From: Sedimenticola sp.
Lineage (GTDB): Bacteria; Pseudomonadota; Gammaproteobacteria; Chromatiales; Chromatiaceae
DNA length: 64,000 bases
Assembly: GCA_027083925.1 (NCBI GenBank)
Contig: JALWMK010000033.1
Span: forward strand, 211 to 64,210
Direction: 5' to 3'
The notes under the pieces are model-generated. The model was not told the origin of the DNA. It searched no databases and saw only the letters and a program-made list of their open reading frames with translations. Made by a program: the position numbers and the translations under genes. This document shows, one piece after another, positions 17-21,561 of the stretch. Within the stretch, counting starts at the first letter, position 1; the number at the start of each line of letters is the position of its first letter.

Positions 17-1426
17 CTATTCTTCTGCTTCCTCGTCACTCAGTCCCTGTGGCGGCACCAGGCCATATTCGTTGATCATGCGCCGCAGCCGGGGGCGGGA
101 TACGCCGAGCACTTCGCAGGCTCTTCCCCTGTGCCAGTTGTTGGCTTCCAAAATTCTGCTGATGTGCTCTTTTTCTACTTCTTTCAGGCTGCGGTCGGTA
201 ACGGGCTTCTCCATTGCGGGCTGCGGGCTGCCGTTGCTCTTGCAGAGGATCTGTTCCGGCAGCAGTTCCCGGGTGAAGGTGTCGCTATGGGAAAGCGCCA
301 CACCTTTCATCAGCACATTTTCCAGTTCGCGGATATTGCCGGGCCACTGATAGGCTTCCATGCAACTGAGCACGTCTTTTGAGATGTGGGTGACATTGCT
401 CTGCAGCTCCTGGTTGATACGCCCGAGGAGGGTTTGTATCAAATCCATCAGATCTTCCTTACGTTCCCGCAGCGGGGGCAGGTGGATGTTGATGACCTGC
501 AGGCGGTAATACAGGTCTTCGCGAAAACTGCCTTCCTGCGTCTTCTGGGCAAGATCAACATTGGTTGCAGTAATGACCCGTGCATCAGAGTGCTGAGCCT
601 GCTTTGCCCCCAGAGGGGTGTATTCCTTGTACTGCAGTACCCGTAACAGCTTGGCCTGCATGGCGGGGGAAAGCTCACCTATTTCATCGAGAAAAATGGT
701 GCCGCCCCGGGCCAGGGAGAATTTTCCTTCCTGGCGACCTACTGCGCCAGTGAAGGCGCCTTTTTCATGGCCGAACATGTCGGACTCGAGCAAGGTTTCC
801 ACCAGAGCGGCGCAATTGATGGCGATAAAGGGGCCTTTTGGGGTTTCGCTGGAGCGATGAACGGCTCTGGCCACCAGTTCCTTGCCTGTGCCGGATTCGC
901 CGGTGATCAGGATGGTGGCAGGGCTTTTCGCCACCAGGCCAATGGTTTTGAAAACTTCTTTCATGGCGTGGCTGCGGCCAACCATGCTTGGGTGCCCGTT
1001 GATGCTTTCCTGGGTAGTGGAAAACAGCAGTTCATCGCTGTCTTTGCTGGCATTTAGCAGCTTGCTGATCGAGGAATCCAGCTCATCGATATCGATAGGT
1101 TTGTGAATGTAGTCATCAGCGCCTTTCTGCATGGCCTCGATGGTGCTGTCCATGTCGTGAAAGGCGGTAATCATGATAATGCATATCTGGGGCCGTTGCT
1201 TCTTGAAATCTGCCAGGCCTTCCAGGCCGGATCTGCCGGGCATGCGGATATCCAGAATGATCAAGTCAGGCTCGTAACTGGCGGCCAGCTCCAGACCTTC
1301 ATCGACGCCGGCGGCCAGCTTTACCTGATGTTCCTGGCTGCTCAGGTGAAGCTGAAGGGTACGGCTGCTGGCGATATCATCATCGACGATAAGAATTTTA
1401 CTCATGATTGTGGCTCGCTGTTGCAC
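17..1426 (-). CDS. sigma-54-dependent response regulator (NtrC/Fis family: receiver + AAA+ activator + HTH)
   Basis: 469-aa ORF. Receiver motifs ILIVDDD and [11 protein letters not shown], Walker [15 protein letters not shown] loop (HEKGAFTGA), C-terminal Fis-type HTH. Its start overlaps the stop of the upstream kinase. Confidence 0.9.
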
Positions 1427-4001
1427 TGTTCTGGGTGGTCGGGTTAATGGGCAGTATTACCGATATGCAGGTGCCAGTGGGAGTGTTGCCGGAAACCAGA
1501 ATGCTGGCCTGATGTTGTTCAAGTATGCGTTTCACTATGGCCAGCCCCAGGCCGGTGCCTTTTGCACGAGTGGTGAAAAATGGCTCGAAAATTCGTTTCC
1601 GGTCCGCTTTGCTGATGCCACAGCCGTTGTCGCAGATATCAATGCGTACATTGGTTCCTTCATGGCCGAGCTCAATCATGGCTTCGATGCTGATCTGGGG
1701 GTTTTCGCTGTCTGCCGTGGCCTGGAAAGCGTTGGCAATCAGGTTGGAGAACAGCTGGCGCAATTTGGTGGCATCGGCATAAATCGTGGGCAGTCCGGAA
1801 TGGTACTGGGTGTGCAAGGTGATTTTCTTCTTGTGTTGGCGGCGCTGGGACATGCCGATGGCCAGGTCGATGACCTTGTCAATGGGAATCCACTCGGGCT
1901 TCAGCGCATCGGGACGGGAATAGGAAAGCATGTCTGAGAGGATCTCTTCCATGTAGCGGATCTGTTCCAGGGAGATCTGGCACAGTTCCCTCGTATCGGC
2001 GCTGGTGGCGGGATCGGCTTTCTTGTCCAGGATCTGCAGGGTCATTTTTACGGAGGAGAGGGGATTGCGCAAGTCATGGGCGATCATGCTGGCCATGCGT
2101 CCCATGGCTGCCATGGTTTCTGCCAGTGCCAGCTCCCGGTTCTGTTTTTCGACTTCTTTTTCCAGGCGTTTCTTTTCGGTGATGTCTTCTTTCACTGCGA
2201 GAATGCTGGTGATATTTCCTTCGCCGTCGCGAATGGCGGATATTGCTGCCGCCTCCCAGAATAATGTGCCGTTTTTGCGCCGGTTGTGAAACTCACCGCG
2301 CCACTCGCCCCCTTTCTGGATAGTCTCCCACAGAGTGCTGTACTCTTCCTTGCTGGTTTCCCCTGATTTCAGCAGGCGTGGATTCTTGCCGATGACCTCC
2401 TCTGAGCGATAACCGGATACCTCAGTGAATTTCGGGTTTACATATTCGATGTTTCCCTGGGGATTGGTGATAACCACCGAGCTTGGACTTTGCTCCACTG
2501 CCTGGTAGAGCTTGAGTAGCTCACTCTCTGTGCGCCGTATGTCGGTAATGTCTTCGCCGATGCCAGTCACGCCGATAACCTCCCCCCTGCTATTGTAGGA
2601 AAGGGTATTATTCCAGGCTATCAGGCGTGGTGCGCCACTACGGGTTTTGACCTGCAGCTCCAGGTGGGAAGGAAACTGCCGGGGAGAGTCCATCAGTCGG
2701 ATGATGCCGGAAACTTTCTCCTTGTCCTGTTTGGCCACCAGTTGCCTGACCCATTCTTTGCCGATGATTTCTTTTCTCTCCCAGCTGGTGATGTCGAGAA
2801 AATGGTTGTTGCAGAATGTCAGCTTTCCTTGCCTGTCGAGGGCAACGGCCGCCAGTTCGATATTTTCCAGGGTGTGCCGAAACCGCTGCTCATAGTCGCG
2901 TTGCGCCTCGGTGATGCGGTGTAAATGGGTGGTGCGCGCCAGAAATCCTGTGCCGACAAACACCAGCAGAAACATGGAAAGATACAGTGTGCCATTGTTT
3001 TTCAGGAATATTGGAAAAGTGGAAGAGATCTGGCTGTATGGAATATGAGAGACAATTTTCCATTGGGGGCTTTGCCCCTGCTCATGACTGATAGCTTCTG
3101 TGGTGGCGGGAAGTGCGGCCAGCGCGATTTTTAATGGATAAATTGTTGTGTAGGTGAAAAAGCCTTCTGGAGTTTCAAATTGACCACTTTCGTTGTTGGA
3201 AATTTCCCGCCACGCAACAGGTTTATCGTTCTGGAAGCGGTTGCCGCTATTGAGCATAAAGCCCCATTCATTTTCGTGTTTGGGGCTGCTCAACCAGTAG
3301 CCGTCGCTATTGAGGAGTTCGATATGGTCAGCAATGCTGGCTGCTGCGCGGGAGAAGTTGTCAATCAGTCGTGCGCCCAGGTAGTTGATCAGAACGATGC
3401 CCTTTTTGTTGCCGCTATGGTTGACAACAGGAGTGGCAAAACGGATCACCGGCTTGAAGGGTTCTTCTATTTTTCCGTTTTCCACGTTCAGGTCAAATCT
3501 CGACAGGTAGATGCCGCCGGGTTTCTGTGTCAGGGCTTCGCGAAAATAGTAGCGGTTAGCTTTGTTCTGCAGCAATGCATAGGGAACAACCTCTACATCT
3601 CCATCGTTGTAGTTGATGCGGACGATTTCCATGCCGCTGTTATCCATGTAGCGAATCTGATCGTACAGCCCCTTGTTTTTGGCGAATACCCGGAACTCTT
3701 CTGCAATACGTTGCTCCCTGGTCCAGGGCAGTGCTTCCGGTAACCCCTGGCTTTCGATATGTTCGGCGAGGAAGCGCAAGTCTTTTGCCACATCGGCAAT
3801 GTCTTCTTGCACCATGCGCCGGGCGAGATCCACGTTCAGGGATTCTGTGGATTCAATGCTGCTGTGTTCGGTGGTATAGAAGGTGTAGTAATGCATGCCG
3901 CCTATAATCAGCAGTACCAGACAGATGGGCAGGAGCAGGCTGATGAAGGTTCTGAGCTGCCCGAGATGGCTTGGTTGTGCTGGAGGCTGAACTATGGGCA
4001 T
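1398..4001 (-). CDS. sensor histidine kinase with ~300-aa periplasmic (Cache-like) domain, two PAS domains, HisKA and HATPase
   Basis: 867-aa ORF. Two hydrophobic segments flank a large extracytoplasmic region. H-box MIAHDLRNPL, N-box NLIANAFQA, G-boxes DNGCGI and GTGLGLAIV. Confidence 0.85.
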   Translation of the reverse strand: MPIVQPPAQPSHLGQLRTFISLLLPICLVLLIIGGMHYYTFYTTEHSSIESTESLNVDLARRMVQEDIADVAKDLRFLAEHIESQGLPEALPWTREQRIAEEFRVFAKNKGLYDQIRYMDNSGMEIVRINYNDGDVEVVPYALLQNKANRYYFREALTQKPGGIYLSRFDLNVENGKIEEPFKPVIRFATPVVNHSGNKKGIVLINYLGARLIDNFSRAAASIADHIELLNSDGYWLSSPKHENEWGFMLNSGNRFQNDKPVAWREISNNESGQFETPEGFFTYTTIYPLKIALAALPATTEAISHEQGQSPQWKIVSHIPYSQISSTFPIFLKNNGTLYLSMFLLVFVGTGFLARTTHLHRITEAQRDYEQRFRHTLENIELAAVALDRQGKLTFCNNHFLDITSWERKEIIGKEWVRQLVAKQDKEKVSGIIRLMDSPRQFPSHLELQVKTRSGAPRLIAWNNTLSYNSRGEVIGVTGIGEDITDIRRTESELLKLYQAVEQSPSSVVITNPQGNIEYVNPKFTEVSGYRSEEVIGKNPRLLKSGETSKEEYSTLWETIQKGGEWRGEFHNRRKNGTLFWEAAAISAIRDGEGNITSILAVKEDITEKKRLEKEVEKQNRELALAETMAAMGRMASMIAHDLRNPLSSVKMTLQILDKKADPATSADTRELCQISLEQIRYMEEILSDMLSYSRPDALKPEWIPIDKVIDLAIGMSQRRQHKKKITLHTQYHSGLPTIYADATKLRQLFSNLIANAFQATADSENPQISIEAMIELGHEGTNVRIDICDNGCGISKADRKRIFEPFFTTRAKGTGLGLAIVKRILEQHQASILVSGNTPTGTCISVILPINPTTQNSATASHNHE

Positions 4002-4333
4002 TGTTGCTCGATGTGCCGCTGCAGTCGGCTCAGGTAGCTGTTCAGTGGTTCATCGGGTTTGCGGGGAAGCAGAAAGGTCAGGCGGGCGGCGATGATATAG
4101 GGCTTGCGGTTTCCGCTTCCGGCTGGTGTCTTTTCGGTCAAAACCTGCTGTATGCGACCCAGGGTTTCTTCAACAGGGTATTCACAGTAGCGTGGCATGG
4201 TGATATTGCGGCTATACCACTGGGCGGCAAAGGAGATACCGATCAGCAGCCCCAGAATTACCAGTATGAGTCTGATTGGGCGGAAGCCACTGTATTGCTC
4301 CTGGTTTTGAGGGGTGTTTTCCGGCATTTTCAA
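3992..4333 (-). CDS. small membrane-anchored hypothetical protein
   Basis: 113-aa ORF with one hydrophobic helix (LILVILGLLIGISFAAQWY). It overlaps both neighbours by 4-10 nt (translational coupling). No recognisable family. Confidence 0.5.
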   Translation of the reverse strand: MKMPENTPQNQEQYSGFRPIRLILVILGLLIGISFAAQWYSRNITMPRYCEYPVEETLGRIQQVLTEKTPAGSGNRKPYIIAARLTFLLPRKPDEPLNSYLSRLQRHIEQQCP

Positions 4334-5733
4334 TGGCTGGGTGTAAGCATCTGTTGCTGATAGCAGTCACAGTTGCCGCTGCGCAAAGAGGCCGCAACGG
4401 TTTGAGCCGTGCGTTGCCCCTGGTAAATACGTTCCCGAACGGAAACCCCATCGATGTAATTTGCGTTCAATTGCAGGCCGGGCATCGTATCCAGGCGGGA
4501 GGAAATCTGCGCCAGCCTGGCGCGATACTGGCCATGATACAGAGGCAACCCCTGATAGTGTCTTTCCACTTTGACATAGTCCGGTTCGCCCTTGATTTTC
4601 ATCAAGGGACGCAGGTTGTCGAGCACCATGCCGGTAAGCTTGTCATCGCTTTGCTGCAGTTGTTCGGGGCGCTGTACCCCGCCAATATAGCAGGTCAGCA
4701 ATGCCTGTTCCGGTGGTGCCCGGTGGGGGAACAGGGTGCTCATCCACAGGTTGCCATTGATGGCCAGCCGGTTGTGCTTTGCCACCAGGAAGCCGGTGCC
4801 GTCCAGTTTGTGCTGGATGTTGCGGCTTTTTATCCCCAGGTGCAACACCCCGACAGGGGCATATTTGATATCAGCGAGCAGTTTCCCCAATCTCTCATCT
4901 GTGGCTTCGAGAAGTTGGCTGCTGATGTCTGCCGGAGTACTTAGCACCAGCTGTGGTACCTGGATATGTGTAGTGCCGCTGCTGCTCGTCCCTTCTGCCC
5001 GCCAGCCGTTGTCCTGCCGACGGATGGTAGTGGCCTTTATCCCGGTACGGATGGTGATGCCGGGGCTGCTGGCGATAGCCTGCACCAATTGCTCCATGCC
5101 GCCGGAAAAGGAAAAGGTGTCGGCACGGTTGGTTTGGCGGCGCCTGATTACCTTGTTGATGAACATGCCCATGGTAAGGCTGCCATAATGCTGTTCCAGT
5201 GCGGTAAGGCGTGGCAGTACGGATTGCGCCTCTGCCAGGTCAGGGTCTGATGCCAGGGTGCCGGATATGAAAGCATCCATGGTGGTGTCCAGAATTTCCT
5301 GCCCCAGGCGGCGGCGGATAAATCCGGATACGGTTTCGCCTGTATGGGAGCCTTTGGGGATGAAAGGTTCCGCCATCAGCCGCAGTTTTGCCGGCAGACT
5401 CCACAGGGGTGAGGCCAGCAATGCAGGCATGAGCATGGGAACCCGGGTGAGGCGATTGTTGTGGATGATGTAGCGGTTGAGGCTGTCATCACGCCGCTGT
5501 TTGTCCTGATCCAGCCCCAGGCGGGAAACCAGCAGGTCAACCTGGGGGCGGAAGTTGACCAGCAGGGCGGCTGCATCCTCGGTAAGATAGCCGGCTTCGC
5601 GGCGGCTGCGGATTTTACCGCCAGGACGCTGTGCGGCTTCCCATACTTCCACAGCAACGCCTTTTTGCGCCAGCCACCAGGCAGTGGAAAGGCCGGAGAT
5701 GCCGCCGCCAACAATGAGTACCTGTGTTTTCAT
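4330..5733 (-). CDS. HemY-type FAD-dependent protoporphyrinogen/coproporphyrinogen oxidase-like protein
   Basis: 467-aa ORF. N-terminal dinucleotide fold VLIVGGGISGLSTAWWL...GGKI. Full-length resemblance to the PPOX/HemY family (…FPHRAPPEQALLTCYIGG…, C-terminal NYIDGVSVRERI). Confidence 0.75.
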   Translation of the reverse strand: MKTQVLIVGGGISGLSTAWWLAQKGVAVEVWEAAQRPGGKIRSRREAGYLTEDAAALLVNFRPQVDLLVSRLGLDQDKQRRDDSLNRYIIHNNRLTRVPMLMPALLASPLWSLPAKLRLMAEPFIPKGSHTGETVSGFIRRRLGQEILDTTMDAFISGTLASDPDLAEAQSVLPRLTALEQHYGSLTMGMFINKVIRRRQTNRADTFSFSGGMEQLVQAIASSPGITIRTGIKATTIRRQDNGWRAEGTSSSGTTHIQVPQLVLSTPADISSQLLEATDERLGKLLADIKYAPVGVLHLGIKSRNIQHKLDGTGFLVAKHNRLAINGNLWMSTLFPHRAPPEQALLTCYIGGVQRPEQLQQSDDKLTGMVLDNLRPLMKIKGEPDYVKVERHYQGLPLYHGQYRARLAQISSRLDTMPGLQLNANYIDGVSVRERIYQGQRTAQTVAASLRSGNCDCYQQQMLTPSH

Positions 5734-5736
5734 CCG

Positions 5737-7764
5737 CTATTTGTTTTTCAGTTCGGCCTTCATTTTATCCAGCAGTTCCCGGTCGAGAAGTCCCAGTCCT
5801 CCATGTTCCGGATCCTGCCTGGCTTCCACATAGTGCTGGATCTCGGAGAAGCGCTTTGCAGCCTGTTCATTTCCCTTCAGCCGGGGCACCTTCTGTTGTG
5901 CAATAGCAAAGGCGCCGAAGTTCAGTTCCTGCATGCCAAAACCCTTCATGCGGCGTACCGCCTTCATCATGGCCCGATTGCGAAAACGGGTCAGATCTTC
6001 CGGGGTGATCAGTTCAATACTTTCACGGCGGGCACCGAATTCTGCTGCTTTCTTGATACCGGCGCGGATGAAATCTGGTGCGGATTCCACCCGGCGCAGG
6101 GCTTCGGCGCTCCAGCTGACGCCAGCGAGATCCGTATGGAAAACCTTTTCCACATCTTCCCGGGTGACGACGATGGCGCTGCGGCGCCTGGCCTCGCGCT
6201 CGGCGGCGGCCTGCATGCCGGGTTTCACAAACATGGCGGCGGCGGGGGAGCGTTTTTCCAGTAGCTCATCCAGTAGTGCTTCGGCACTGTTTTCCCAAGG
6301 GAGCTTGCGTTCGTTACTGTCACCTGCTTCCAGGCGCTGCAACAGCTTGATATTGACTTCCAGGCGGCCCTCGTTGCGCGCCACGTCTTCGGCAACGGTA
6401 GCGATGCCGTCGCGCAGAAAGCCTGGCAGCTCGTTCAGCCAGGCTTTGGCTTCCGTGGTCCAGGCCAGTGCTTTGGCGGTGTTATCCCCGGTACCCGTTT
6501 CCGGGCGCCGCATGGGGAAGTTGTCGCCAAAGCGATTGGCTGCGAGTGTACTCAGATGCCCTGCGGTGACTATGGATTCTCCCAGCGACTGCACATGGGA
6601 TTCGGCGCGCTTGCGTACCATCTTGCGCAGGAATCCCGGCACTTTTTGCAGGCGCTGGCTGGCTTCTTCCGACCACTTTATGGTGCCTGCGCTCTGCCCG
6701 GCAAGGGGCTGGATGATGGCTCGCCCGCTGGGGCGGTGGCCGCACCAGGGGTCGGCGTCCATGATGTCTCCGCCCATGGCCAGCGGGCGCGCCCGGCAGC
6801 CGCCACAGAGCTTCTGGTATTCGCATTTTCCGCATTTGCCCTTCAGCTCCGGATTGCGCAAGCGGTCGAAGGTGGGAGACTGGTCCCAGATTTCCCAGAA
6901 ATCCTGGTTACGGATGCTGCCTTCTTCGTCAGGAATGTACGGGCAGGCAGTAACGGTTCCTTCGGGGGTGATGCGGCAGTAGTGAATGCCCGCCAGGCAG
7001 CCACCCCCCTCGTATCCCTGGGCGCGGGTGAGGGGCGATTCAGAATCGTGTTCGTAGGCTACACGTTTGTAGTGGGGTGCACAGCGGGCGCGGATAATCA
7101 GATCCCGAGTATTTTCCTGGGCTTTCACCAGGTGTTTCAGCACCTGTTCATAGCGTACCGGGCTGATGTCGGACATGGATTCGCCCCGGCCGGTGCAGAC
7201 CAGAAAAAAAATATTCAGTACATGTGCGCCGCTGGCTCGGGCGAAGTCGATCATGGGCTGCACTTCGTGGGCGTTTTTCTCGGTGACGGAAAAATGCACC
7301 TGAAAGGGCAATGCATGCTTGCGGCAGTGATCCATGCCTGCCAGGGTTTTTTCCCAGCTTCCGGGGCAGCCGCGAAAACTGTCGTGGCGATCGGGATCCA
7401 GGGAATCCAGGCTGATTCCCATGCCCAGTGTGCCGGCGGATTTCAGGGTTTGTACCCGGGCTTCGCTGAGCAGCACGCCGTTGGTGCCCACCACGACGGA
7501 AAGCCCCAATCGACTGCCGTGGGTGACCAGGGTTTCCAGATCTCGCCGCAGCAGGGGTTCGCCGCCGGTAAGTACCACCATGGTTTCATTGCTGCGGGAT
7601 GCAATTGCATCCAGCAGATTTTTGACTTCCGCCGTGCTCAGTTCTTCGCTGCTGCCGGTGTCCCGGGTTTCGGCGTCCATGTAGCAATGGGCGCAAGCCA
7701 GGTTACAGCGACGCGTAAGGTTGACGGCGATGAGAAACAGATCGTTATCCATTGCGGGAGTCAT
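5737..7764 (-). CDS. radical SAM/SPASM protein (AhbD/NirJ-like core) with four C-terminal PCP_red-like repeats
   Basis: 675-aa ORF. CX3CX2C motif CNLACAHC, GGEPLL, and a SPASM-type Cys cluster CGKCEYQKLCGGCRARP. The C-terminal ~330 aa contain four W-x2-(E)A...(V/L)P-x-F-(L/I)R repeats. Confidence 0.85.
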   Translation of the reverse strand: MTPAMDNDLFLIAVNLTRRCNLACAHCYMDAETRDTGSSEELSTAEVKNLLDAIASRSNETMVVLTGGEPLLRRDLETLVTHGSRLGLSVVVGTNGVLLSEARVQTLKSAGTLGMGISLDSLDPDRHDSFRGCPGSWEKTLAGMDHCRKHALPFQVHFSVTEKNAHEVQPMIDFARASGAHVLNIFFLVCTGRGESMSDISPVRYEQVLKHLVKAQENTRDLIIRARCAPHYKRVAYEHDSESPLTRAQGYEGGGCLAGIHYCRITPEGTVTACPYIPDEEGSIRNQDFWEIWDQSPTFDRLRNPELKGKCGKCEYQKLCGGCRARPLAMGGDIMDADPWCGHRPSGRAIIQPLAGQSAGTIKWSEEASQRLQKVPGFLRKMVRKRAESHVQSLGESIVTAGHLSTLAANRFGDNFPMRRPETGTGDNTAKALAWTTEAKAWLNELPGFLRDGIATVAEDVARNEGRLEVNIKLLQRLEAGDSNERKLPWENSAEALLDELLEKRSPAAAMFVKPGMQAAAEREARRRSAIVVTREDVEKVFHTDLAGVSWSAEALRRVESAPDFIRAGIKKAAEFGARRESIELITPEDLTRFRNRAMMKAVRRMKGFGMQELNFGAFAIAQQKVPRLKGNEQAAKRFSEIQHYVEARQDPEHGGLGLLDRELLDKMKAELKNK

Positions 7765-9979
7765 CCGGGTTGAGGTGAAAAACGCCCCGCTCCATCCAGA
7801 TGGCCTTCACGGCATTTACCGACGCTTCGCTTACCCTTTGCAGGCCGTTGCGTTTGCTCCAGTCTTCGATTTCCTTGATCAGCATGCCGCGCACCCTATC
7901 CGGTGCTTTATTGATGCGTTCCCTGGCGGCTGTTTCCCAGGGCATGGTTTCCCTGTGTGGTTCTGAACCGGATTGAAACGATTGCAATACCTGCTGCACG
8001 AATGCGGGTTCGATGGTATCCATGTCTTTCCGGGCGGCAATTTCCTGAGCCGCCTTGCGGGTCATGTCGCGGCAGAACCCTGGTGGCACGTTGTTCAGCA
8101 GGGCTTCTGCCTCCCTCTCCCATCGTATTTTTGCAGTGGGGCGGGACTCCCGGCCCGGCGTATCGGATTTTCCGGCTGCGGTGAAGGGACAGCGACTATT
8201 GTTGCTGTCCGGGACGGGTTCTTCTGTGGCTGAGGTGGCAGCCATTTGCCCTTCCATGGCCTTGCGTGCTTCGGCCAGTCCTGCTTCAGCGGTTGTCAGG
8301 CTGATTTCTGTCAGCCCCTGGTTTTTTGCATGGTTTTCGATGTGCTGCCGGGAGCTGTCGCGCATAAAACCCTCGGGTACGCGCATGAGCCGGGCAAGGG
8401 CTGCGGCCTGCCATTGCAGGGGGGGCTGTATTGCATCGGCCTGGAGGCCTGTGCTGTCTTGATTGCCAGGAAGAGTCGCTGCCGCTGTTCCCGGCTGAAA
8501 GCGGGCAACAGGGACGTTCTCGTCAAGAAAGGCCTGGATGTGCGTGGCCTCCACGATCTGACTGCCTGTGGTGCGGGCTTTCTTTTCTGCGCGCATGCTC
8601 AGGTTGCCGCGCAGGCTGAGATCCTTGATGGTGAGCAGTAGCGCGGTGGCTGCTTCGCTCCAGCGCATGATGTTGTGTGCTTCGGGCTTGCGCTTGAGGT
8701 CGCCACGATCATAGGCTTCGACGATTTCTCCCATGGCCTGCTCTGCGTGGCCGGGCATGAGCTGGGCGGTGGCTTCTTCGACGATATTCTCGGTGATGAC
8801 GGTATGGCCTTTTTCCTGGGCGTAGCGCAGGATGGCCATGCGCGCCATGCTGCGCACGAATGAGGGTACCCGTTTCATGCGGGTTTCCGCCTCGTGGGTC
8901 CAGGATGTGCTCACGGCTGCCAGCCTGTCTACCTGGGGTTGGTGCTCGCGCTGGCTGAGCAGTACAGCGCAGGGAGCATCGTTAAGCAGATGCTCGGCGT
9001 TTCCGCCAATGTCCAGTTCCGGGTCAGCGTGGATGCCGGTGGTTCCCAGTACCAGCAGGGAAGGTTCGATCTCGTGCAGGTAGCGGTTGATGACTTCGTG
9101 GGGCTTGCCGTCCAGTAGTATGGTTTCCACTTCCATGCCGTAGTCTTTGGCGATGGACTGCACCACGGACAGATGTCCCTGGTAGATCTTTGCCAGGCCG
9201 GAGTCGATGATTTCCTCGTGGAGCTTTTCCTGCTCCTGAAACTTGAATACCTTGCCTGCTTCTTCCGATAATACCCCGGCAATGCGGTTGAAAGCGACAT
9301 AGTGATAATAGGGGTCGAATGCAGATACCACTTTTATTTCTGCGCCCCAGGTTTTTGCCAGACTCAGGGCGGTGAGCAGGCCGCCGTAGGATTTGGCAGA
9401 GCCATCTACGCCTACTACGATTGGTCCGTCAGCGAGTTGGCGGACGGGGTCTTTGATGGTCAGGGTGTCGATGTTGCTGCGCCGTGATACCCGCTGGCAG
9501 ACCGTGCCCAGACGGCTGCCCTTGACAGCGCCAAGGCCAAGGGCTCCCATGATCAGCAAATCGTAGTTGCCGCTGTTGGCTTCGTTCACCAGTTCGCGGT
9601 AGTTTTTTCCTTCCAGGGAGCGGCGTTGCACCCGTAGTTTTTCTCCGGCGGCGGTTTCCACCTGATCCAGATAGGAGTCGGTGATTATCGACAGTCCCCG
9701 GGTGATCAGATCATCATGTACATCGCGCTGGCGCTCCAGTTCCTGCTCTTCACGAAACTGTGCCGGAAGCCCGCCTTCCATTTGCCGAAACCGTGCATCA
9801 TGGAGCTTTGCGGCGTATACATGAGCCGCTGTAAGCTGCGCCTGGTATTGCCCCGCCAGGGCAATGGCTTCCAGGGTTCCCCGATTGGCATGATCTGAGG
9901 AATCCACAGCCAGCAGGATGGACGAGTAGCCAGGCAGTGCAGGCGTTGTTTCGGGTTTGTCTTGTGCTCGTGCATTCAT
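7745..9979 (-). CDS. tandem universal-stress-protein (USP) domains fused to five PCP_red-like repeats
   Basis: 744-aa ORF. Two USP-like halves (ILLAVDSSDHA...LLIMGALG and IVVGVDGSAKS...LLVLGTTG) are followed by five repeats such as WTHEAETRMKRVPSFVRSMA and WEREAEALLNNVPPGFCRDMT. Confidence 0.8.
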   Translation of the reverse strand: MNARAQDKPETTPALPGYSSILLAVDSSDHANRGTLEAIALAGQYQAQLTAAHVYAAKLHDARFRQMEGGLPAQFREEQELERQRDVHDDLITRGLSIITDSYLDQVETAAGEKLRVQRRSLEGKNYRELVNEANSGNYDLLIMGALGLGAVKGSRLGTVCQRVSRRSNIDTLTIKDPVRQLADGPIVVGVDGSAKSYGGLLTALSLAKTWGAEIKVVSAFDPYYHYVAFNRIAGVLSEEAGKVFKFQEQEKLHEEIIDSGLAKIYQGHLSVVQSIAKDYGMEVETILLDGKPHEVINRYLHEIEPSLLVLGTTGIHADPELDIGGNAEHLLNDAPCAVLLSQREHQPQVDRLAAVSTSWTHEAETRMKRVPSFVRSMARMAILRYAQEKGHTVITENIVEEATAQLMPGHAEQAMGEIVEAYDRGDLKRKPEAHNIMRWSEAATALLLTIKDLSLRGNLSMRAEKKARTTGSQIVEATHIQAFLDENVPVARFQPGTAAATLPGNQDSTGLQADAIQPPLQWQAAALARLMRVPEGFMRDSSRQHIENHAKNQGLTEISLTTAEAGLAEARKAMEGQMAATSATEEPVPDSNNSRCPFTAAGKSDTPGRESRPTAKIRWEREAEALLNNVPPGFCRDMTRKAAQEIAARKDMDTIEPAFVQQVLQSFQSGSEPHRETMPWETAARERINKAPDRVRGMLIKEIEDWSKRNGLQRVSEASVNAVKAIWMERGVFHLNPDDSRNG

Positions 9980-10119: not shown

Positions 10120-10248
10120 TCAATGCAATAACCAGTAACCGACAATGTAACCGATAACCACCAGATTAATGATGCCGCCGATAATAGCCATGCCGTCTAA
10201 AAGGCTGGGCCGCCATTTTTGCCTTGTGGCCACTGTTGCTGACTTCAT
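10120..10248 (-). CDS. 42-aa single-pass membrane ORF (not in supplied track)
   Basis: My own translation: MKSATVATRQKWRPSLLDGMAIIGGIINLVVIGYIVGYWLLH. It starts 7 nt after the cupredoxin stop, has a weak SD, and is followed by the hairpin. Confidence 0.3.
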   Translation of the reverse strand: MKSATVATRQKWRPSLLDGMAIIGGIINLVVIGYIVGYWLLH

Positions 10249-10254: not shown

Positions 10255-10995
10255 TTACTTGAAAGTGAAGTCAACGGTTGCAGTGCCGCCGGTATCCACG
10301 GTCACTTTGGCTTTCTGGTTCTTCAACATGCCATGCCAGGCTTTGATGGTGTATTTACCCGGAGGAACATCTTTGATGGTGAAGCTGCCATCATCCGCAA
10401 CTTTGGCAAAGTACGGGTTTTTGGCAATGAAAACGAATCCGTGCATGAAGTCGTGGGCATCACATTCCACTTTCATGGCGGGTCCCTTCTTGACCTTGAT
10501 TGTGGATTTCACTACGCCGGGCTTGGGCTGACTGATATTTGTCAGGGTTTTTTTCGGCCCCTTGGCATCGCCGCGTATCAGTTCATAGGTGTGAATGTTA
10601 TGCAGGATGGGATCATCGTTTACGGCAGAAAGAACTGCCTTGTTTTTCATCACCTGGAGAAAGGGTTTGAACTCGCAGCCTTTCTGATCAATGGTGGCGT
10701 CGCCTACATCAGTAGGGAAGGGCTTGCCTTCCTTGACCTTCTCCAGATAAACCACAGCATCCATCAGGTGGCCGTTTTCCACCCGTACAAAGTCGATCTC
10801 GCGCACTCCGGTGCCACATACGTCGTTGTCCTTGGAAATGGTATATGTCTTTGGTGGCCGATCCTTGCCTGCAAATTTCACGCTGCCGGTAATGGTTCCG
10901 CCGTTGGAAACGCCGGTCTCCTTGTAGGCTGCCTGACTCGCCAGGGGCAAGGCGCAAAGACCGGCAATGCTGAGGGTAACGAGTGCTTTTTTCAT
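10255..10995 (-). CDS. secreted cupredoxin-like (type-1 copper) protein with CarboxypepD_reg-like beta-sandwich
   Basis: 246-aa ORF with a signal peptide (…LPLASQAAY). Candidate Cu ligands are LHNIH plus C-DA-H-DF-M, the same C-x2-H-x2-M loop spacing as amicyanin CTPHPFM. C-terminal DGSFTIKDVPPGKYTIKAWH. Confidence 0.7.
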   Translation of the reverse strand: MKKALVTLSIAGLCALPLASQAAYKETGVSNGGTITGSVKFAGKDRPPKTYTISKDNDVCGTGVREIDFVRVENGHLMDAVVYLEKVKEGKPFPTDVGDATIDQKGCEFKPFLQVMKNKAVLSAVNDDPILHNIHTYELIRGDAKGPKKTLTNISQPKPGVVKSTIKVKKGPAMKVECDAHDFMHGFVFIAKNPYFAKVADDGSFTIKDVPPGKYTIKAWHGMLKNQKAKVTVDTGGTATVDFTFK

Positions 10996-11018: not shown

Positions 11019-13415
11019 TCAGGCTGCCTGTTCAGGGTTGTCCTGTGCAGTCAGCAGTTCTTCTATCATTTCAATATATACGCTGCGTTTGACGCTGTCG
11101 TCGGCCTGCTTGAGGTTTGCCAGCAATATGCTGTTGGCAAGGTCGGTATCGAATTGACGCAGCGCACGGCCAATCAGCCTCGCTTCTTCTCCGGTGCCTA
11201 TGGTAACGCCATCGATAATCTTTTCGACTGCTTTGCGGGTAAATGATTCCTCCTGCAAAGGCTCCAGCAGCCTCGCCAGGCCCTTGGCTGCAGTGACGCG
11301 CACACCCATTTCACTGTCTTCCAGGCATTCCATGAGCCTGCGGGCAATGCTCAGGGCTGGGACATCACGTATAACCATGTGATCCGCCTTGAGCGGATCC
11401 TGACTGTTGAGAGATAGATGCACCAGGGCATCAATAGCCTGGATGCGCAGGGTGAATTCCGGGGCTTTCAGTGTTTCCACCAATGGAACCAGGGCGGCCC
11501 GGTTGCCGATATGGCTCAGTGCTCTGGCGCTGGCAATTTTCTGATCCAGATCGCCAATGGCCAATTGGGTGATCAGGGTGCCGACGGCGTCGGACAAACC
11601 GGCAAGCAGCGGGTTGCGCTGCGCCATGATGCCGATGGACTCTGCTGCTTCCCGGCGTACCGGGGCGGCATCGTCATTGAGCGCCTGGATCAGGGTTTGC
11701 AGTACCTCTGCCTCGTCGATATCTGCAAGCACATGCGCCGCCAGCCGGCGTATATCCTGCTGCGCATCGATTTTGCGGTTGGAGCGCATGCGTCGCATAA
11801 GTTCCTTGTTGTCTTCAACGATTTCCATGTATTCCAAAGTGGCTTCGTCCTGGATATCCTCTACCGGATGCGGGGTGGCAAGCATGGTTTCCACATTTGC
11901 CATGCTGATTGCATCCAGGGTGGACATGGCGGGTGCGACTTCGCCTTCGGCGACGATTTGGGCGGGTGTTTCTGGTAGATCGAGGTCAGTTTCTGCCGGT
12001 GTTGATGCTTCTGGCAGGTTTTCCTCGCTATCGTGCAAATCTTCCGCGCCTTCGATGCTGGTGTCCAGGGTCACTTCCACGGGAGCGGCGGCGGCCGGTG
12101 GCTCCGGAACGGTGATTTCCCCGTTCAATGCACCCATGATCAGATCCAGAGGCCGGGACAATGGCGCCTCTTTGTCATCCGGCTGTAAAATCAGGCCGGT
12201 TTTTTCCAGCTCCATCAAGGCTGCCAGGGCTGCCAGACGCACCACTTGCTGTTCATCCGTAATGGCCTTTTCCAGCGTACCGAGTACTTGTGCATCGATC
12301 TGCCCCAGGCTGCCAATGGCAGTGGCAGCCTCTTTTCGCACCATGGGATGGACGCTGCTGTCGGCTACTATCTCCAGCAGGTGCGTGATGGCGGATATGT
12401 TCCCGTTGGCCCCGAGGAGGGCGCAGGCAGCAGCAGCCGTTTCGGCAGCAGTATCGCGAATGTGATCGAGCACGACTTGAAAATTCGCTGCCGACAGTGG
12501 GTTGTCGGCAACAACCGGCAACAGCATGGAGTACAGGATGGCACGCACCTCAGGGTCGGGGTCAGCCAGCATGTCCTGGAATGCTTCTTCGATGTGCGGT
12601 GTATTGTCACTGTTTTGCGCCAGTCGGGTAACGGCCTTGAGCGATGCCTGGCGTACCTGGTTGTCTGGGTCGCGCAACAGCAGGGTCAGGGCGCTGAGGT
12701 AGGAAATGGCATTTTGTTTGGAAAGGGACAAGGCAGCTTCTGCACGCACGTCGGCGGCGGGATCCGTCAGCGCACGCCCCAAGGCTCTGGTGGCCTCGCT
12801 GGAGGGGGAGCGCGCCAACGCATGGGCTGCCCTGCGCCGGTGAATGGGGGTACTGTCCTGGTTCTGCAGCCGCTCGATGACCCGGGCTTCGCCATTGCTG
12901 GATATCCGGATCAGGGTATTGAGAATATCGGGTTCCATGTCCTGCTGGGTTTCATCACCAATAAGAGCAGCGAGGCGATCAACCGCTTTTTCCGCCTGTA
13001 GTGTTCCCAGCGCGTGAACAGCGGCCTTCTGCACATCCCACCAGGTGTCCCAGTCGTCGTCCCATTCCATGTTTTCCGGGCGCTCCAGGCAGATTTTCAG
13101 CAGGGGATCGATGGTATCGGGGTCTCCGATCTTGCCGAGCGCAACAGCCACCATGGTACACACCTCGCCACTGGGGTCATTCTCCAGGGATTCGATCAAC
13201 GCTGGCACCGCTTTTGGCGAACCAATATTTCCCAATGCCTCTGCGGCATCGATGGCAACGTCCAGATCCTCATCCCTGAGATGCTCAATCAGGGTTTCAA
13301 TGGGTGCCGCATCTCCCAGCAGGCCCAAGGCGCGGGCTGCATAGCAGCGATCTGCTTCATCACCAGTTTGAACAAGCTGGCACAAGGTGTCCACGGTTTC
13401 TCTGTATGTTGTCAT
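11019..13415 (-). CDS. cytoplasmic HEAT-repeat (PBS-lyase-type) protein with acidic central linker
   Basis: 798-aa ORF. Many repeats of the D..VR..AA.ALG..G pattern, no signal peptide, and an acidic, low-complexity middle region. Confidence 0.8.
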   Translation of the reverse strand: MTTYRETVDTLCQLVQTGDEADRCYAARALGLLGDAAPIETLIEHLRDEDLDVAIDAAEALGNIGSPKAVPALIESLENDPSGEVCTMVAVALGKIGDPDTIDPLLKICLERPENMEWDDDWDTWWDVQKAAVHALGTLQAEKAVDRLAALIGDETQQDMEPDILNTLIRISSNGEARVIERLQNQDSTPIHRRRAAHALARSPSSEATRALGRALTDPAADVRAEAALSLSKQNAISYLSALTLLLRDPDNQVRQASLKAVTRLAQNSDNTPHIEEAFQDMLADPDPEVRAILYSMLLPVVADNPLSAANFQVVLDHIRDTAAETAAAACALLGANGNISAITHLLEIVADSSVHPMVRKEAATAIGSLGQIDAQVLGTLEKAITDEQQVVRLAALAALMELEKTGLILQPDDKEAPLSRPLDLIMGALNGEITVPEPPAAAAPVEVTLDTSIEGAEDLHDSEENLPEASTPAETDLDLPETPAQIVAEGEVAPAMSTLDAISMANVETMLATPHPVEDIQDEATLEYMEIVEDNKELMRRMRSNRKIDAQQDIRRLAAHVLADIDEAEVLQTLIQALNDDAAPVRREAAESIGIMAQRNPLLAGLSDAVGTLITQLAIGDLDQKIASARALSHIGNRAALVPLVETLKAPEFTLRIQAIDALVHLSLNSQDPLKADHMVIRDVPALSIARRLMECLEDSEMGVRVTAAKGLARLLEPLQEESFTRKAVEKIIDGVTIGTGEEARLIGRALRQFDTDLANSILLANLKQADDSVKRSVYIEMIEELLTAQDNPEQAA

Positions 13416-13459
13416 GGTTGTGTTCCGAAATTCCTGTGACGGTCTTGGGATATAAATTA

Positions 13460-13475
13460 TGCATTATTCATGCCA
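13460..13475 (-). promoter_or_regulatory. candidate sigma-54 (-24/-12) promoter for the HEAT/cupredoxin operon
   Basis: The minus strand reads TGGCATGAATAATGCA. GG-N10-GC spacing is kept and 10 of 12 specified positions of TGGCACG-N4-TTGCW match. It lies ~45 nt upstream of the ATG at 13415. Confidence 0.45.
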
Positions 13476-13799: not shown

Positions 13800-13815
13800 T
13801 GGCTTGGTTTTTGCT
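13800..13815 (+). promoter_or_regulatory. candidate sigma-54 (-24/-12) promoter for the cydA-like operon
   Basis: TGGCTTGGTTTTTGCT. GG-N10-GC spacing is kept and 10 of 12 specified consensus positions match. It lies ~60 nt upstream of the ATG at 13875. Confidence 0.45.
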
Positions 13816-14201: not shown

Positions 14202-16103
14202 ATGAAGCAAACAGAATCTATACATACGATCGGCGGCCGTTTGGCGGCGATGCTGTTTTCGCTACTGGTGTTGCTGCTCTTTGGCATGGCGGCTGTGGCC
14301 CAGGCTGATGCCGGCATGGGTGGTACCCAGGAACGTATTGCGCCAATTGGCGAAGTGCGCCTGGCGGGGCAGCCGCCAGTTGAGGTGTCTGCAGAACCTG
14401 CCGCCATCCAGGAGCAGGAGACGCAGCTCAAGGCGGCGCCCCGGCCTGGCCGTTCCGATTATCCCAATGTCGGTGTCAGCAGCAGGGCCATCGTATGGGT
14501 TCTGGGCCAGATGCATCTGTTCTTTGGCGCGCTGGTACTGGCGGTACCCCTGTTTGTGCTGTTGATCGAACTGGTCGGGGTGTACACCCGTGATGACCGC
14601 TATGACGACATGGCGCATGAGTTCATGAAGATCAGCCTCACGGGTTTTTCCATAACCGCCATCTTTGGTGGGTCGCTGGCCCTGGCGCTGTTCCTGCTCT
14701 ATCCGGATCTGATGGGCTATTTGATGAATGTGTTTGGCGCCCAGTGGCTGGTATATGCGGGACTGTTCTTTTTTGAGAGTTTCTTTTTATACATTTACTA
14801 TTATGGGTGGAATGCGCTCCGTTATGGAAACCTGAAATGGGTGCATCTCACCCTGGGGCTGTTGTTGAATGCATCGGGCCTGACGATTATGGTGCTGGCC
14901 AATTCATGGGCGACTTTCATGATGGCGCCATCGGGAGTGAACGAGGTCGGTGCGGTTGTCGGCAATATCTGGGAGGTGATGAAAGGACCCTTGTGGAATC
15001 CCATCAACCTGCACCGTTTCATCGCAAACATTGCCTTTGGTGGTGCGGTGGTCGGCGCATACGCGGCGTTCAAGTTTCTCAGCGCCAAGGATCCGGTCAA
15101 GCGCGCCCATTATGACTGGATGGGTTATACCTCGAACTTCATCGCGATTCTGTCCTTCCTGCCGTTGCCTTTCGCGGGATATTGGCTGATGGCGGAGATC
15201 TATGCCTACTCGCAGCAGATGGGTATTACCGCCATGGGTGGTATTTTAGCCTGGCTGTTTATCGTGCAGGCGGTGCTTATCGGCACGATTTTGCTGGCGG
15301 GCAATTTCTACCTGTGGTCGGGGATGTCACGCACTGATGGTTCGGAACGCTACAAGGGGCTGATCAAGGTGATTGCCTTGGTGCTGGTGGTGAGCTTCCT
15401 GATCTGGGTAACGCCTCATACGCTGATCCTTTCCGCCTCGGAAATCTCTCTGCTGGGAGGGAGTCATCATCATATTCTCGGTCCTCTGGGCATCATGCCG
15501 GCAAAGAATATTGCGGTGAATCTGATGCTGATCGCAACTTTCCTTTCTTTCCAGCTCTATCGTCGTTCCGACAAGGTGGCCACGGTGCGCTGGGCGCCCA
15601 TGGGGAATGCGTTGATGGTTGCTGTGTATGTAGGTGCCGTGGTGAATATCATTTTCCTCGGCGTTTACTACGGCTACTTTACCAATACCGTGTACAAGGT
15701 GGGTTCTTCCGTTGCTCAGGTGGTTACCACCCTGGTGGTGATCGTTTTCGGGCTGGTTATCGATTCCCTGATGTTCAAGAAAGCCAAGGTTCTGCCGTCT
15801 CATTGGGGGCGCATTCCTGATCGTGCGCAGTATGCGTTGTTTGCGCTGCCTATTGCCTTTACCTGGCTTATGGCGCTGATGGGCTATGTGCGCTCTTCGG
15901 TAAAGACGCACTGGCATGTTTATACCGTAATGAAGGACAACTCGCCGGATAACTTCATTCCCACCATTGGCTATGCAGGAAACATGATCACCCTGGTGAC
16001 GGTGTTGTTCCTGCTGTGCGTACTGTTCATGTTCTGGGTGGCGAACCTGAGCGGCAGTAAACAGCCGAAGCCTGGCGCTGTCGCAGCCGGAGGTGAGGCA
16101 TGA
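14202..16103 (+). CDS. CydA-like membrane protein (cytochrome bd oxidase subunit I superfamily), no CydB partner
   Basis: 633-aa polytopic ORF. Segments align by eye to E. coli CydA: GQMHLFFGALVL (His19 region), GLFFFESFFLYIYYYGW (FFLESTF...FFFGW), LANSWATFMMAP (ANGWMQNP) and NLHRFIANIAFGG (His186 region). There is an extra N-terminal helix. The GRQPW signature is not recognisable (GYVRSSVKTHW). Confidence 0.8.
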   Translation: MKQTESIHTIGGRLAAMLFSLLVLLLFGMAAVAQADAGMGGTQERIAPIGEVRLAGQPPVEVSAEPAAIQEQETQLKAAPRPGRSDYPNVGVSSRAIVWVLGQMHLFFGALVLAVPLFVLLIELVGVYTRDDRYDDMAHEFMKISLTGFSITAIFGGSLALALFLLYPDLMGYLMNVFGAQWLVYAGLFFFESFFLYIYYYGWNALRYGNLKWVHLTLGLLLNASGLTIMVLANSWATFMMAPSGVNEVGAVVGNIWEVMKGPLWNPINLHRFIANIAFGGAVVGAYAAFKFLSAKDPVKRAHYDWMGYTSNFIAILSFLPLPFAGYWLMAEIYAYSQQMGITAMGGILAWLFIVQAVLIGTILLAGNFYLWSGMSRTDGSERYKGLIKVIALVLVVSFLIWVTPHTLILSASEISLLGGSHHHILGPLGIMPAKNIAVNLMLIATFLSFQLYRRSDKVATVRWAPMGNALMVAVYVGAVVNIIFLGVYYGYFTNTVYKVGSSVAQVVTTLVVIVFGLVIDSLMFKKAKVLPSHWGRIPDRAQYALFALPIAFTWLMALMGYVRSSVKTHWHVYTVMKDNSPDNFIPTIGYAGNMITLVTVLFLLCVLFMFWVANLSGSKQPKPGAVAAGGEA

Positions 16104-16933
16104 GCGTACTGTTAAAGACATTGGGCTTCAGCCTGGGACTGACCCTGCTCTTTACCTTGGTAACCTACCTGCTTCCCCAGGTAAAGGGTGAGGCCCCGGT
16201 GGAAAAGGCGGTGGATCTGGGTTCCCTGACCATGGAAAGCTTCATTGCCCTGGGGGACGAAATCTTCCACAACAAGGGTACCTGTACCCTGTGCCACCAG
16301 CCCGCACCCTTGGGACGAGCGCCGGATATTGGGGGAGAAGACATGGTAGCGCTTGCCAACAAGCATCTGGCCGATGAACGTTACCAGGGAGATGCAAAGA
16401 ATGCCGAGGAATATATCCGGGAATCCCTGCTTCATCCTGGCAAATATGTTGTCGCCGGTTGGGGGAAAAAAGGCAGCAACGATACCGAGTCTCCAATGCC
16501 TATGGTGGACAAGCCCCCCATACAGCTTACGCCGATAGAGATCGATGCCGTGATCGCCTGGTTGGAGGCAAAGGATGGTGGCGAGGTTACCGTGACTCTG
16601 CCCACAGCGGAAGCGGCAGCGGAAGTGGCTTCGGCAGCAACTGCCGACGACAGCGGCAAAGCTCCTGTCCTGGCGACAACAGCGGTAGAAGCACTTGCCA
16701 AATACGCCTGTACTTCCTGCCATGCAATGGACAGTAATGACGTCTTGGTTGGCCCGGGGTTGGTGGATATCGGCTCCCGCCTGAGCAAGGAAGAGCTGCG
16801 GCAAAGCATTGTTGAGCCGAATGCGGTGGTGGCTGAGGGCTTCCCGCCTGCCATGCCGCCTGATTTTGCATCCAAGATGACAGTGAGTGAGCTGGAGATG
16901 ATTGTCAACTATCTGGCGGAGAAGAAAGGATGA
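16100..16933 (+). CDS. membrane-anchored dihaem c-type cytochrome
   Basis: 277-aa ORF with an N-terminal hydrophobic anchor and two CXXCH motifs (CTLCH, CTSCH). ATGA overlap with the cydA-like stop. Confidence 0.85.
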   Translation: MSVLLKTLGFSLGLTLLFTLVTYLLPQVKGEAPVEKAVDLGSLTMESFIALGDEIFHNKGTCTLCHQPAPLGRAPDIGGEDMVALANKHLADERYQGDAKNAEEYIRESLLHPGKYVVAGWGKKGSNDTESPMPMVDKPPIQLTPIEIDAVIAWLEAKDGGEVTVTLPTAEAAAEVASAATADDSGKAPVLATTAVEALAKYACTSCHAMDSNDVLVGPGLVDIGSRLSKEELRQSIVEPNAVVAEGFPPAMPPDFASKMTVSELEMIVNYLAEKKG

Positions 16934-21546: not shown

Positions 21547-21561
21547 TTCGAGGAGAATGTC

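Follow-up and report, generated by a model that had tools for sequence, protein, structure and literature searches.

A radical SAM/USP gene pair with PCP_red repeats adjoins bd-like terminal oxidase genes in many bacterial phyla and may serve their haem supply

Do noncanonical bd-like oxidases come with haem enzymes of their own? Among the closest described systems, AhbD is the radical SAM haem b synthase of the siroheme-dependent pathway, in which it acts as coproheme decarboxylase. An AhbD also serves alongside or downstream of the HemY-type oxidase CgoX in Gram-positives that use the coproporphyrin pathway (PMC13564367), and HemQ and AhbD have been described as "largely absent" from Proteobacteria with the classical pathway (PMC5095920). 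On the oxidase side, members of the OR-N family of cytochrome bd-like enzymes lack a quinol site, with genes for cytochrome c or other donors close by (bioRxiv 10.1101/2021.01.16.426971). The "TO_1" type of Nitrospirota has a periplasmic cytochrome b. OR-N enzymes are present in many phyla, are presumed to be the main terminal oxidases of Nitrospira and Nitrospina, and are regarded as likely main oxidases of Nitrospinota and Nitrospirales, yet they are uncharacterised. Here we analyse a 64,000-nucleotide (nt) stretch of Sedimenticola sp. DNA (contig JALWMK010000033.1, positions 211 to 64,210; the window), in which genes for an AhbD/NirJ2-like radical SAM/SPASM enzyme and a tandem-USP protein lie in a block that diverges from the genes of an OR-N-like oxidase (Table 1). 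The two proteins form a widely conserved, apparently undescribed accessory pair of OR-N-type oxidase clusters, and they probably make or deliver the haem of the neighbouring oxidase.

Like AhbD, the radical SAM protein has the CX3CX2C motif (C20/C24/C27) and auxiliary-cluster cysteines, of which eight lie in the SPASM region between residues 256 and 341; in Pfam it matches Radical_SAM (84 bits), SPASM (28 bits) and, in three stretches, PCP_red (111.5 bits). Its best NCBIfam matches are NirJ2 (TIGR04055, 317.2 bits) and AhbD (TIGR04545, 307.2 bits). Both cover the full 340-residue core and both fall below 500 bits, the cut-off for NirJ2 and the equivalog cut-off for AhbD. Lower scores were returned for NirJ (158 bits), AhbC (156 bits) and PqqE and the peptide maturases (130 bits or less). 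The profile is the same, at 300–345 bits, in family members from Brocadia, Nitrospina, Poribacteria, Nitrospirota and a deltaproteobacterium, with AhbD-model scores of 300–332 bits in relatives from other phyla, and several members are annotated in IMG as "AdoMet-dependent heme synthase." Among 1.84 billion cluster representatives, relatives include multi-repeat forms of ~530–715 amino acids (aa) and many forms of ~415–435 aa with a single PCP_red domain.

Where does this protein fall among its relatives? In a simple distance (neighbour-joining) tree of 111 core domains, with outside clades labelled by their NCBIfam scores, all PCP_red-tailed proteins form one clade and tail-less sequences fall outside it. 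The tailed clade is sister to NirJ2-like sequences, represented by a true NirJ2 group (P0158, 533 bits), and is separate from an AhbD-leaning group (353–470 bits). The single tailed clade, the tail-less sequences outside it and the AhbD/NirJ2 labels around it thus indicate a new branch, distinguished by its tails, within the AhbD/NirJ2 radiation of tetrapyrrole-acting enzymes. The first-pass annotation of the window, made from the sequence alone, had likened the enzyme to AhbD and NirJ and had allowed that it might instead cluster with peptide maturases; placement and scores both bear out the likeness, and no such clustering is seen. Judged by its sequence, the protein is a member of the AhbD/NirJ2 branch and not a peptide maturase. 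Context adds a further likeness to AhbD, in that the gene adjoins one for a HemY-family oxidase, the functional partner of AhbD in coproporphyrin-pathway bacteria. Unlike AhbD and NirJ2, however, the module enzymes constitute a separate clade, carry one to four C-terminal PCP_red repeats and have a conserved tandem-USP partner; their genes belong to clusters for terminal oxidases and not to ahbABC or hem groups, and they are found in Proteobacteria that use the classical pathway. Because AhbD is largely absent from such Proteobacteria (PMC5095920), the module copy is unlikely to be a housekeeping enzyme and more likely an accessory one.

The partner protein matches Usp in two stretches (120.8 bits) and PCP_red in four (131.7 bits). 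The repeats common to both proteins, which had been said to resemble PCP_red, are indeed PCP_red (PF08369): the family is matched seven times across the pair and exceeds its 32.5-bit gathering threshold in each protein. In an AlphaFold2 model of the USP protein (mean predicted local distance difference test score, pLDDT, 71.3), five PCP_red-type units are joined by flexible linkers. The corresponding model of the radical SAM protein (pLDDT 76.8) has a PqqE/SuiB/anSME-like core and a tail of four strand-helix-helix-strand-helix units, of which Pfam detects three; a fold search with this model returned generic SPASM enzymes only, there being no AhbD or NirJ structure to compare. The first USP domain carries the nucleotide motif G-x2-G-x9-G-T (G145-ALG-LGAVKGSRL-G158-T), whereas the second has G for S/T; a Usp match above threshold together with this motif in domain 1 is characteristic of ATP-binding-class Usp proteins (PF00582).

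In BchB, of the dark protochlorophyllide reductase, the C-terminal PCP_red part covers protochlorophyllide. The C-terminus of BchB/ChlB and the solved standalone proteins 2kru and 2l09, which match the repeats, share PF08369 with the module proteins, and the units modelled here have the same strand-helix-helix-strand-helix pattern. Unlike BchB, the module proteins have no nitrogenase-like BchN/BchB body, and their PCP_red domains follow one another like beads on a string, attached to USP or radical SAM domains, in organisms that are not phototrophs. A separate feature of the USP protein is a conserved Cys-Pro at residues 595–599, in a disordered linker between PCP_red repeats, seen in USP homologues from 42 of 56 loci. 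The motif reads S-x-C-P-F in Gamma- and Betaproteobacterial relatives and C-P-x-C, with a weak match to the rubrerythrin C-terminus, in Poribacteria, Nitrospirota and Methylomirabilota; in two loci (L031 and L059) the knuckles are paired. We considered and dropped a haem-regulatory reading of the Cys-Pro-Phe, because other phyla have a rubredoxin-like CPxC knuckle at this position. The sequence would allow a metal, redox or haem-thiolate site, with a metal or redox site the better guess.

How widely is the pair conserved, and beside what? A survey with one genome per GTDB species yielded 80 loci from ~20 higher taxa, among them Gamma-, Beta-, Alpha-, Zeta- and Deltaproteobacteria, Nitrospirota, Nitrospinota, anammox Planctomycetota, Poribacteria, Methylomirabilota, Rokubacteria, Myxococcota, SAR324, Rhodothermales, Acidobacteriota and Chloroflexota. 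Neighbours of the radical SAM gene were counted within a 10-kb flank by phmmer with the proteins of the window, a search that may miss distant homologues. The radical SAM gene has the tandem-USP partner as its neighbour in 53 of the 80 loci (290–650 bits). A CydA-like protein is encoded near it in 21, belonging to at least 10 higher taxa and, in 15 of the 21, on the same strand. An EB_dh cytochrome was counted in 22 loci, the 246-aa periplasmic protein of the window in 21, a HemY-type oxidase in 21 and an AioA/IdrA-like molybdoenzyme in 4. The HemY-type oxidase is absent from nonproteobacterial versions of the module, one Nitrospirota locus excepted, and the kinase and regulator are present only in Gamma- and Betaproteobacterial relatives and a few other loci; HemY, kinase and regulator are lineage-specific additions outside the core.

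Contiguous blocks of CydA-like, cytochrome c, EB_dh, USP and radical SAM genes on one strand are found in Nitrospirota (L012, L081), a gammaproteobacterium (L030), Rhodothermales (L053), Acidobacteriota (L054) and SAR324 (L059), and the same block is present on a Nitrospirota contig whose genes were called independently and annotated with Pfam (L084). Partial blocks are found in a deltaproteobacterium (L039, without the USP gene) and in Anammoxibacter (L036, without a CydA-like gene within 9 kb). In Poribacteria (L043 and ~15 other loci), the USP/radical SAM pair is part of a caa3-type oxidase and biogenesis cluster with two COX3 genes, COX4, SCO1, a BamB-like propeller, an MrpORP-like Fe-S carrier, two small PCP_red proteins, a short HEAT protein, DUF420 and a distant protein of the chlorite-dismutase/ChdC family. 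The last is weakly ChdC-like at best (52 bits against 253), and we make no claim for it as ChdC; a "HemJ-like" membrane protein encoded beside the poribacterial gene, at 25–26 bits, is far below cut-offs and was not used as evidence. Taken together, the neighbourhoods define the USP and radical SAM pair as the conserved core and terminal-oxidase clusters, above all those of OR-N bd-like enzymes, as its recurrent context. Of what had been proposed for these genes at first, the link to the neighbouring CydA-like protein is thereby the best-supported part, as at least 10 higher taxa have the pair next to genes for a CydA-like protein, cytochrome c and EB_dh. The published descriptions of OR-N oxidases that we searched do not mention radical SAM, USP or PCP_red partner genes, and our literature search found no paper describing an association of the USP/radical SAM pair with an OR-N oxidase.

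The oxidase next to the pair in the window is itself noncanonical. Pfam finds Cyt_bd_oxida_I (64 bits), Cytochrom_C and EB_dh in its operon, with two and three CxxCH motifs in the two cytochromes. The CydA-like protein has ~11–13 hydrophobic segments and aligns with solved CydA over helices 1–4 only, where the active-site His and the proton-path Glu are kept. A canonical quinol cytochrome bd has a full CydA with Q-loop and b558 ligands as well as CydB, and this combination is not seen here: no match to CydB was seen, and the CydA-like gene is followed by cytochrome c genes instead. Conservation limited to helices 1–4, likely donors of the cytochrome c type and a haem b domain in the periplasm are features shared with OR-N clusters such as "TO_1," and the sequence of the neighbour agrees with what has been published for OR-N-type cytochrome bd-like oxidases. 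Near residue 430, in a predicted loop or helix edge, the CydA-like protein (14202–16103, +) also has a three-histidine run, GGSHHHILG; for the bd-like oxidase of Nitrospira, a copper-binding role of histidines has been proposed.

What might the pair do? On balance, we lean toward a dedicated supply or tailoring of tetrapyrrole, that is, haem, for terminal oxidases by AhbD-like chemistry, with the OR-N bd-like complex as the one most likely served. The radical SAM enzyme would use a 5'-deoxyadenosyl radical for oxygen-independent side-chain chemistry on a tetrapyrrole of the haem pathway. The likeliest reaction would be an oxidative decarboxylation of propionates, either from coproheme to haem b, as in AhbD, or from coproporphyrinogen to protoporphyrinogen; were protoporphyrinogen the product, the co-transcribed HemY-type oxidase would aromatise it. 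For the latter, HemN (CgdH) provides a functional analogy only: the same propionate-to-vinyl chemistry, ahead of protoporphyrinogen oxidase, matches the gene order of radical SAM followed by HemY, but HemN is of a different radical SAM lineage without SPASM, and no kinship was detected beyond the radical SAM core. The PCP_red repeats would serve to hold the tetrapyrrole or to dock the two partners with each other, and the USP partner, with its nucleotide motif and, in other phyla, its rubredoxin-like insert, would gate or reduce the radical SAM enzyme. The product haem would then go to the oxidase complex.

Several points weigh against this proposal. The analysis shows the gene structure, the family assignments, a distinct clade, synteny across phyla and promoter motifs, whereas for every member the substrate, the product, the parts played by PCP_red and USP and the delivery to the oxidase are inferred from sequence and context. 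Scores well below the AhbD and NirJ2 equivalog cut-offs mean that the substrate may differ. No His or Cys ligand is conserved in the PCP_red repeats, which could serve for docking and nothing more, and no report of tetrapyrrole binding by isolated PCP_red domains was found in the literature. There is no ferrochelatase gene in the cluster. HemY-type oxidases normally use O2 and AhbD-type enzymes are oxygen-labile, an awkward pairing. Finally, ~60% of the loci, including those of Poribacteria, Nitrospinota and Brocadia, have no CydA-like gene within 10 kb; a role dedicated to bd-like oxidases therefore cannot be universal.

Could the product be something other than haem b? The module might make a new or modified haem for the OR-N oxidase or the EB_dh cytochrome, such as a chlorin like haem d or a partly decarboxylated haem, the radical SAM enzyme having diverged from AhbD in reaction as well as in context; we regard this as unlikely, though several observations speak for it. 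The clade is distinct and scores below threshold on every characterised family, superfamily relatives (NirJ and AhbC, to go by their NCBIfam names) do other side-chain chemistry, the genes are tightly co-located with an oxidase whose haems await identification, and extra accessory genes for the HEAT/PBS-lyase-like protein and Mrp suggest a specialised pathway. Stated for the oxidase family, this would mean that OR-N enzymes depend on an unrecognised cofactor-maturation system that makes or inserts a tailored haem other than plain haem b. In such a system a radical SAM enzyme derived from AhbD would work with a USP partner gated by ATP or redox state, and each would handle the tetrapyrrole with its PCP_red repeats; we regard this, too, as unlikely. 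As for haem d, which the first-pass annotation had speculated the module might supply to the CydA-like neighbour, we found no haem d-specific evidence, and classical haem d bd hosts such as E. coli are not known to have any such gene. That idea gains no support from a noncanonical OR-N-type neighbour, from a pair that also sits in a poribacterial caa3 cluster, or from the many loci without a bd-like neighbour, and the caa3 cluster and the Nitrospinota and Brocadia copies without an oxidase neighbour count against modified haems in general. So does CydAA', the sole characterised noncanonical member of the family, which works with haem b alone (bioRxiv 10.1101/2021.01.16.426971).

Rather improbable, in our estimation, is a general role in which an AhbD isoenzyme and HemY carry out the last steps to haem b without oxygen, are induced at low oxygen and share no more than co-regulation with the oxidase. 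Such a role would fit the IMG label borne by several members, the many loci without an oxidase neighbour and the replacement of ChdC by AhbD in anaerobic coproporphyrin-pathway bacteria (PMC13564367). USPs encoded beside electron-transport clusters in Nitrospira marina rise at low O2 (PMC8115632), although their membership in the module's USP family is not established. Co-regulation alone, however, hardly accounts for the way in which unrelated phyla have repeatedly joined these genes, on the same strand, to oxidase operons; the classical pathway is already present in Proteobacteria (PMC5095920), and an ordinary AhbD needs neither a conserved USP partner nor PCP_red tails. Very improbable is a maturase of an oxidase subunit, small membrane peptide or cytochrome with PCP_red as recognition domains: the SPASM fold is common to PqqE, SuiB and anSME, conserved small peptides are encoded in the locus and MauG/MbnH-like dihaem protein-modifying enzymes lie nearby, but maturase models score less than half as high as tetrapyrrole-enzyme models, the clade nests inside the AhbD/NirJ2 radiation, Pfam finds no PqqD/RRE recognition domain in the protein, and the small open reading frames (ORFs) of the locus, in place of the precursor peptide that accompanies such a domain in peptide maturases, encode plain transmembrane helices resembling oxidase small subunits.

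The gene block that houses the pair is larger than had been thought. Six coupled ORFs reported between 17 and 9979 were all recovered in place, with junctions that overlap or leave gaps of no more than 3 nt. Comparison with relatives favours shorter starts for three of them, with coupling retained: the start of the radical SAM gene then overlaps the stop of the USP gene by 8 nt (ATGGATAA), that of the small protein follows the HemY stop after 2 nt, and that of the regulator overlaps the kinase stop by 8 nt. Upstream of 9979 lie three more co-directional genes, for a 42-aa peptide, a periplasmic protein and a HEAT protein, and the gaps from the USP gene through these are 140, 6 and 23 nt. The co-directional unit thus comprises nine genes, from 13415 down to 17, rather than six starting at 9979; the proposed co-transcription with built-in regulators is plausible, as there are no convincing terminators and sigma-54 elements are conserved. 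Scans for terminators and sigma-70 promoters gave matches at chance level only. Rfam had no match in positions 1–27000 of the window; the 140 nt ahead of the USP gene thus contain no riboswitch.

Table 1. Features of the module, its promoters and the adjoining respiratory genes in the window
Feature	Position	Strand	Remarks
NtrC-type response regulator/sigma-54 activator gene	17..1426	-	469 aa; likely start ATG 1405
Sensor histidine kinase gene	1398..4001	-	867 aa
Small single-helix membrane protein gene	3992..4333	-	113 aa, ~111 aa from ATG 4327; overlaps kinase start
HemY-family FAD-dependent porphyrinogen oxidase gene	4330..5733	-	467 aa
AhbD/NirJ2-like radical SAM/SPASM gene	5737..7764	-	675 aa; likely start ATG 7752
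Tandem-USP/PCP_red protein gene	7745..9979	-	744 aa; conserved partner of the radical SAM enzyme
Single-helix membrane peptide gene	10120..10248	-	42 aa; read from sequence; 6 nt after periplasmic protein gene
Periplasmic protein gene	10255..10995	-	246 aa; signal peptide visible; Pfam hits
Cytoplasmic HEAT-repeat (PBS-lyase-like) protein gene	11019..13415	-	798 aa; Pfam; probably first gene of operon
Candidate sigma-54 -24/-12 promoter TGGCATGAATAATGCA	13460..13475	-	45 nt upstream of HEAT gene start
Candidate sigma-54 -24/-12 promoter TGGCTTGGTTTTTGCT	13800..13815	+	faces oxidase operon
Two conserved membrane peptides	13875-14030 and 14044-14196	+	~50 aa; before CydA-like gene; homologues called in L001, L003
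CydA-like protein, dihaem cytochrome c, trihaem cytochrome c-EB_dh fusion	14202..19359	+	633, 277 and 809 aa; Pfam
idrP1P2BA-type cluster	20371-26071	+	two CCP_MauG dihaem peroxidases, Rieske subunit, AioA-like molybdoenzyme; order P-P-B-A

The closest homologues of these genes come from Thiolapillus (90–93% identity), followed by Sedimenticola, Thiodiazotropha and Endoriftia, all sulfur-oxidising Gammaproteobacteria of the Sedimenticolaceae group. The full arrangement is kept, at ~67–76% protein identity, in Endoriftia and a Sedimenticola symbiont, where the order is HEAT protein, periplasmic protein, (tiny peptide,) USP, radical SAM, HemY, small protein, kinase and regulator, and where the divergent side has the small peptides, CydA-like protein, cytochrome c and cytochrome c/EB_dh fusion. 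The arrangement is far beyond chance. The third gene of the originally proposed set had been called HemY-like, and it does belong to the HemY family: it scores 249.5 bits on TIGR00562 over residues 2–450 (cut-off 97.85) and 155.5 bits on Pfam Amino_oxidase, and its nearest solved relative is the Myxococcus xanthus PPO 2ivd (214 bits, E = 4.9e-62), with the Bacillus subtilis structure 3i6d at 146 bits. With PgoX and CgoX it shares a full-length match above the TIGR00562 cut-off and an FAD-binding N-terminus; unlike the usual HemY, its gene lies inside a respiratory accessory operon and is coupled to a radical SAM gene. Its substrate may be either proto- or coproporphyrinogen. The small protein that follows matches no Pfam or NCBIfam family. 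It has a single hydrophobic helix (residues 15–41), and conserved homologues occupy the same position in Gamma- and Betaproteobacterial relatives (57–179 bits).

How is the block controlled? The kinase is laid out, according to Pfam, as a transmembrane segment, a periplasmic Cache-like sensor, a second transmembrane segment, two PAS domains, HisKA and HATPase, the membrane segments spanning residues 13–41 and 337–357. The regulator matches Response_reg, Sigma54_activat (230 bits) and HTH_8 and has a GAFTGA motif at residue 223. A receiver, an AAA+ domain with GAFTGA, a helix-turn-helix domain, a cognate kinase and candidate -24/-12 promoters are thus all present, as in NtrBC-type sigma-54 two-component systems. 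No site was found with the strict sigma-54 consensus (TGGCAC-N5-TTGC) or with one degenerate form of it; a looser -24/-12 pattern gave two intergenic sites, which were accepted only once they proved conserved in relatives. Of five other relatives examined, four (L001, L004, L007, L008) have an equivalent element 50–60 nt upstream of the HEAT gene, and the element on the oxidase side has a near-identical copy at the same place in Endoriftia (L001). As the loose pattern is so rare in the window (~1 per 8 kb of strand), this recurrence is not chance. The nine-gene operon, running from 13415 to 17, is on this sequence evidence probably sigma-54-dependent, and it is best explained as the accessory and control arm of the respiratory gene cluster. 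The proposal for this lineage is that the kinase senses the periplasm and, with the NtrC-type activator, switches on both divergent operons through the -24/-12 promoters. The divergent intergenic region also contains a 105-aa ORF (13457–13774, -) that matches no family, overlaps a candidate promoter and is probably not a gene. Elsewhere in the window (46820–49871, -) is a second sigma-54 two-component pair, unrelated to the module, with a PilS-like kinase of six transmembrane segments and an NtrC-type regulator; the genome thus uses several sigma-54 activators.

The HEAT protein matches HEAT_2 (197.8 bits) and HEAT_PBS (59 bits), with weak matches of the CpcE/CpcF type, and its gene adjoins the module in Gamma- and Alphaproteobacteria, SAR324 and, in a short form, Poribacteria. 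In the periplasmic protein, Pfam recognises only a C-terminal CarboxypepD_reg/fn3-like domain. A pattern H-N-x-H ... C-D-x-H-x2-M is conserved across 24 aligned sequences from several phyla (the window and 23 homologues), with the Met replaced by Leu in two, and in ligand set and spacing the motif corresponds, by sequence, to a type-1 (amicyanin-like) copper site. Together with SCO1, to which the oxidase operon continues (19438–20034), this ligand set suggests a copper part of the respiratory system. The locus also encodes three single-helix peptides of 42–51 aa, all below the default ORF size cut-off, with homologues called in Endoriftia and Sedimenticola; the Endoriftia counterpart of the 42-aa peptide has 38 aa (L001 7562–7678). 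From their sequences, the three may be small oxidase subunits of the CydX kind.

Beyond SCO1 the oxidase operon runs into an idrP1P2BA-like set. Its Rieske subunit scores 120 bits on arsenite_ox_S and its AioA-like molybdoenzyme, which has a 3Fe-4S Rieske_3 N-terminus, 390 bits on arsenite_ox_L, barely above the cut-off. Iodate reductase clusters are recognised by an AioA-like molybdoenzyme and Rieske subunit beside two cytochrome c peroxidase genes (Reyes-Umana et al., PMC8692401); the genes of the window have this idrABP1P2 synteny and are assigned to the class by it. A homologue of the molybdoenzyme (1380–1447 bits) directly precedes the HEAT-to-HemY genes in three alphaproteobacterial loci (L016, L022, L023), and in another locus (L052) the molybdoenzyme gene stands last in one same-strand block that also contains the oxidase and module genes.

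Nitrite oxidisers of global importance, like many uncultured lineages, are believed to respire with OR-N bd-like oxidases, and a conserved pair of haem enzymes encoded beside these oxidases would be a concrete handle on enzymes that have never been purified. The clade of AhbD-like enzymes delineated here is large and uncharacterised, and the PCP_red domain gains a first testable role outside photosynthesis. The finding places an AhbD-type enzyme in classical-pathway Proteobacteria, where such enzymes have been held to be largely absent.

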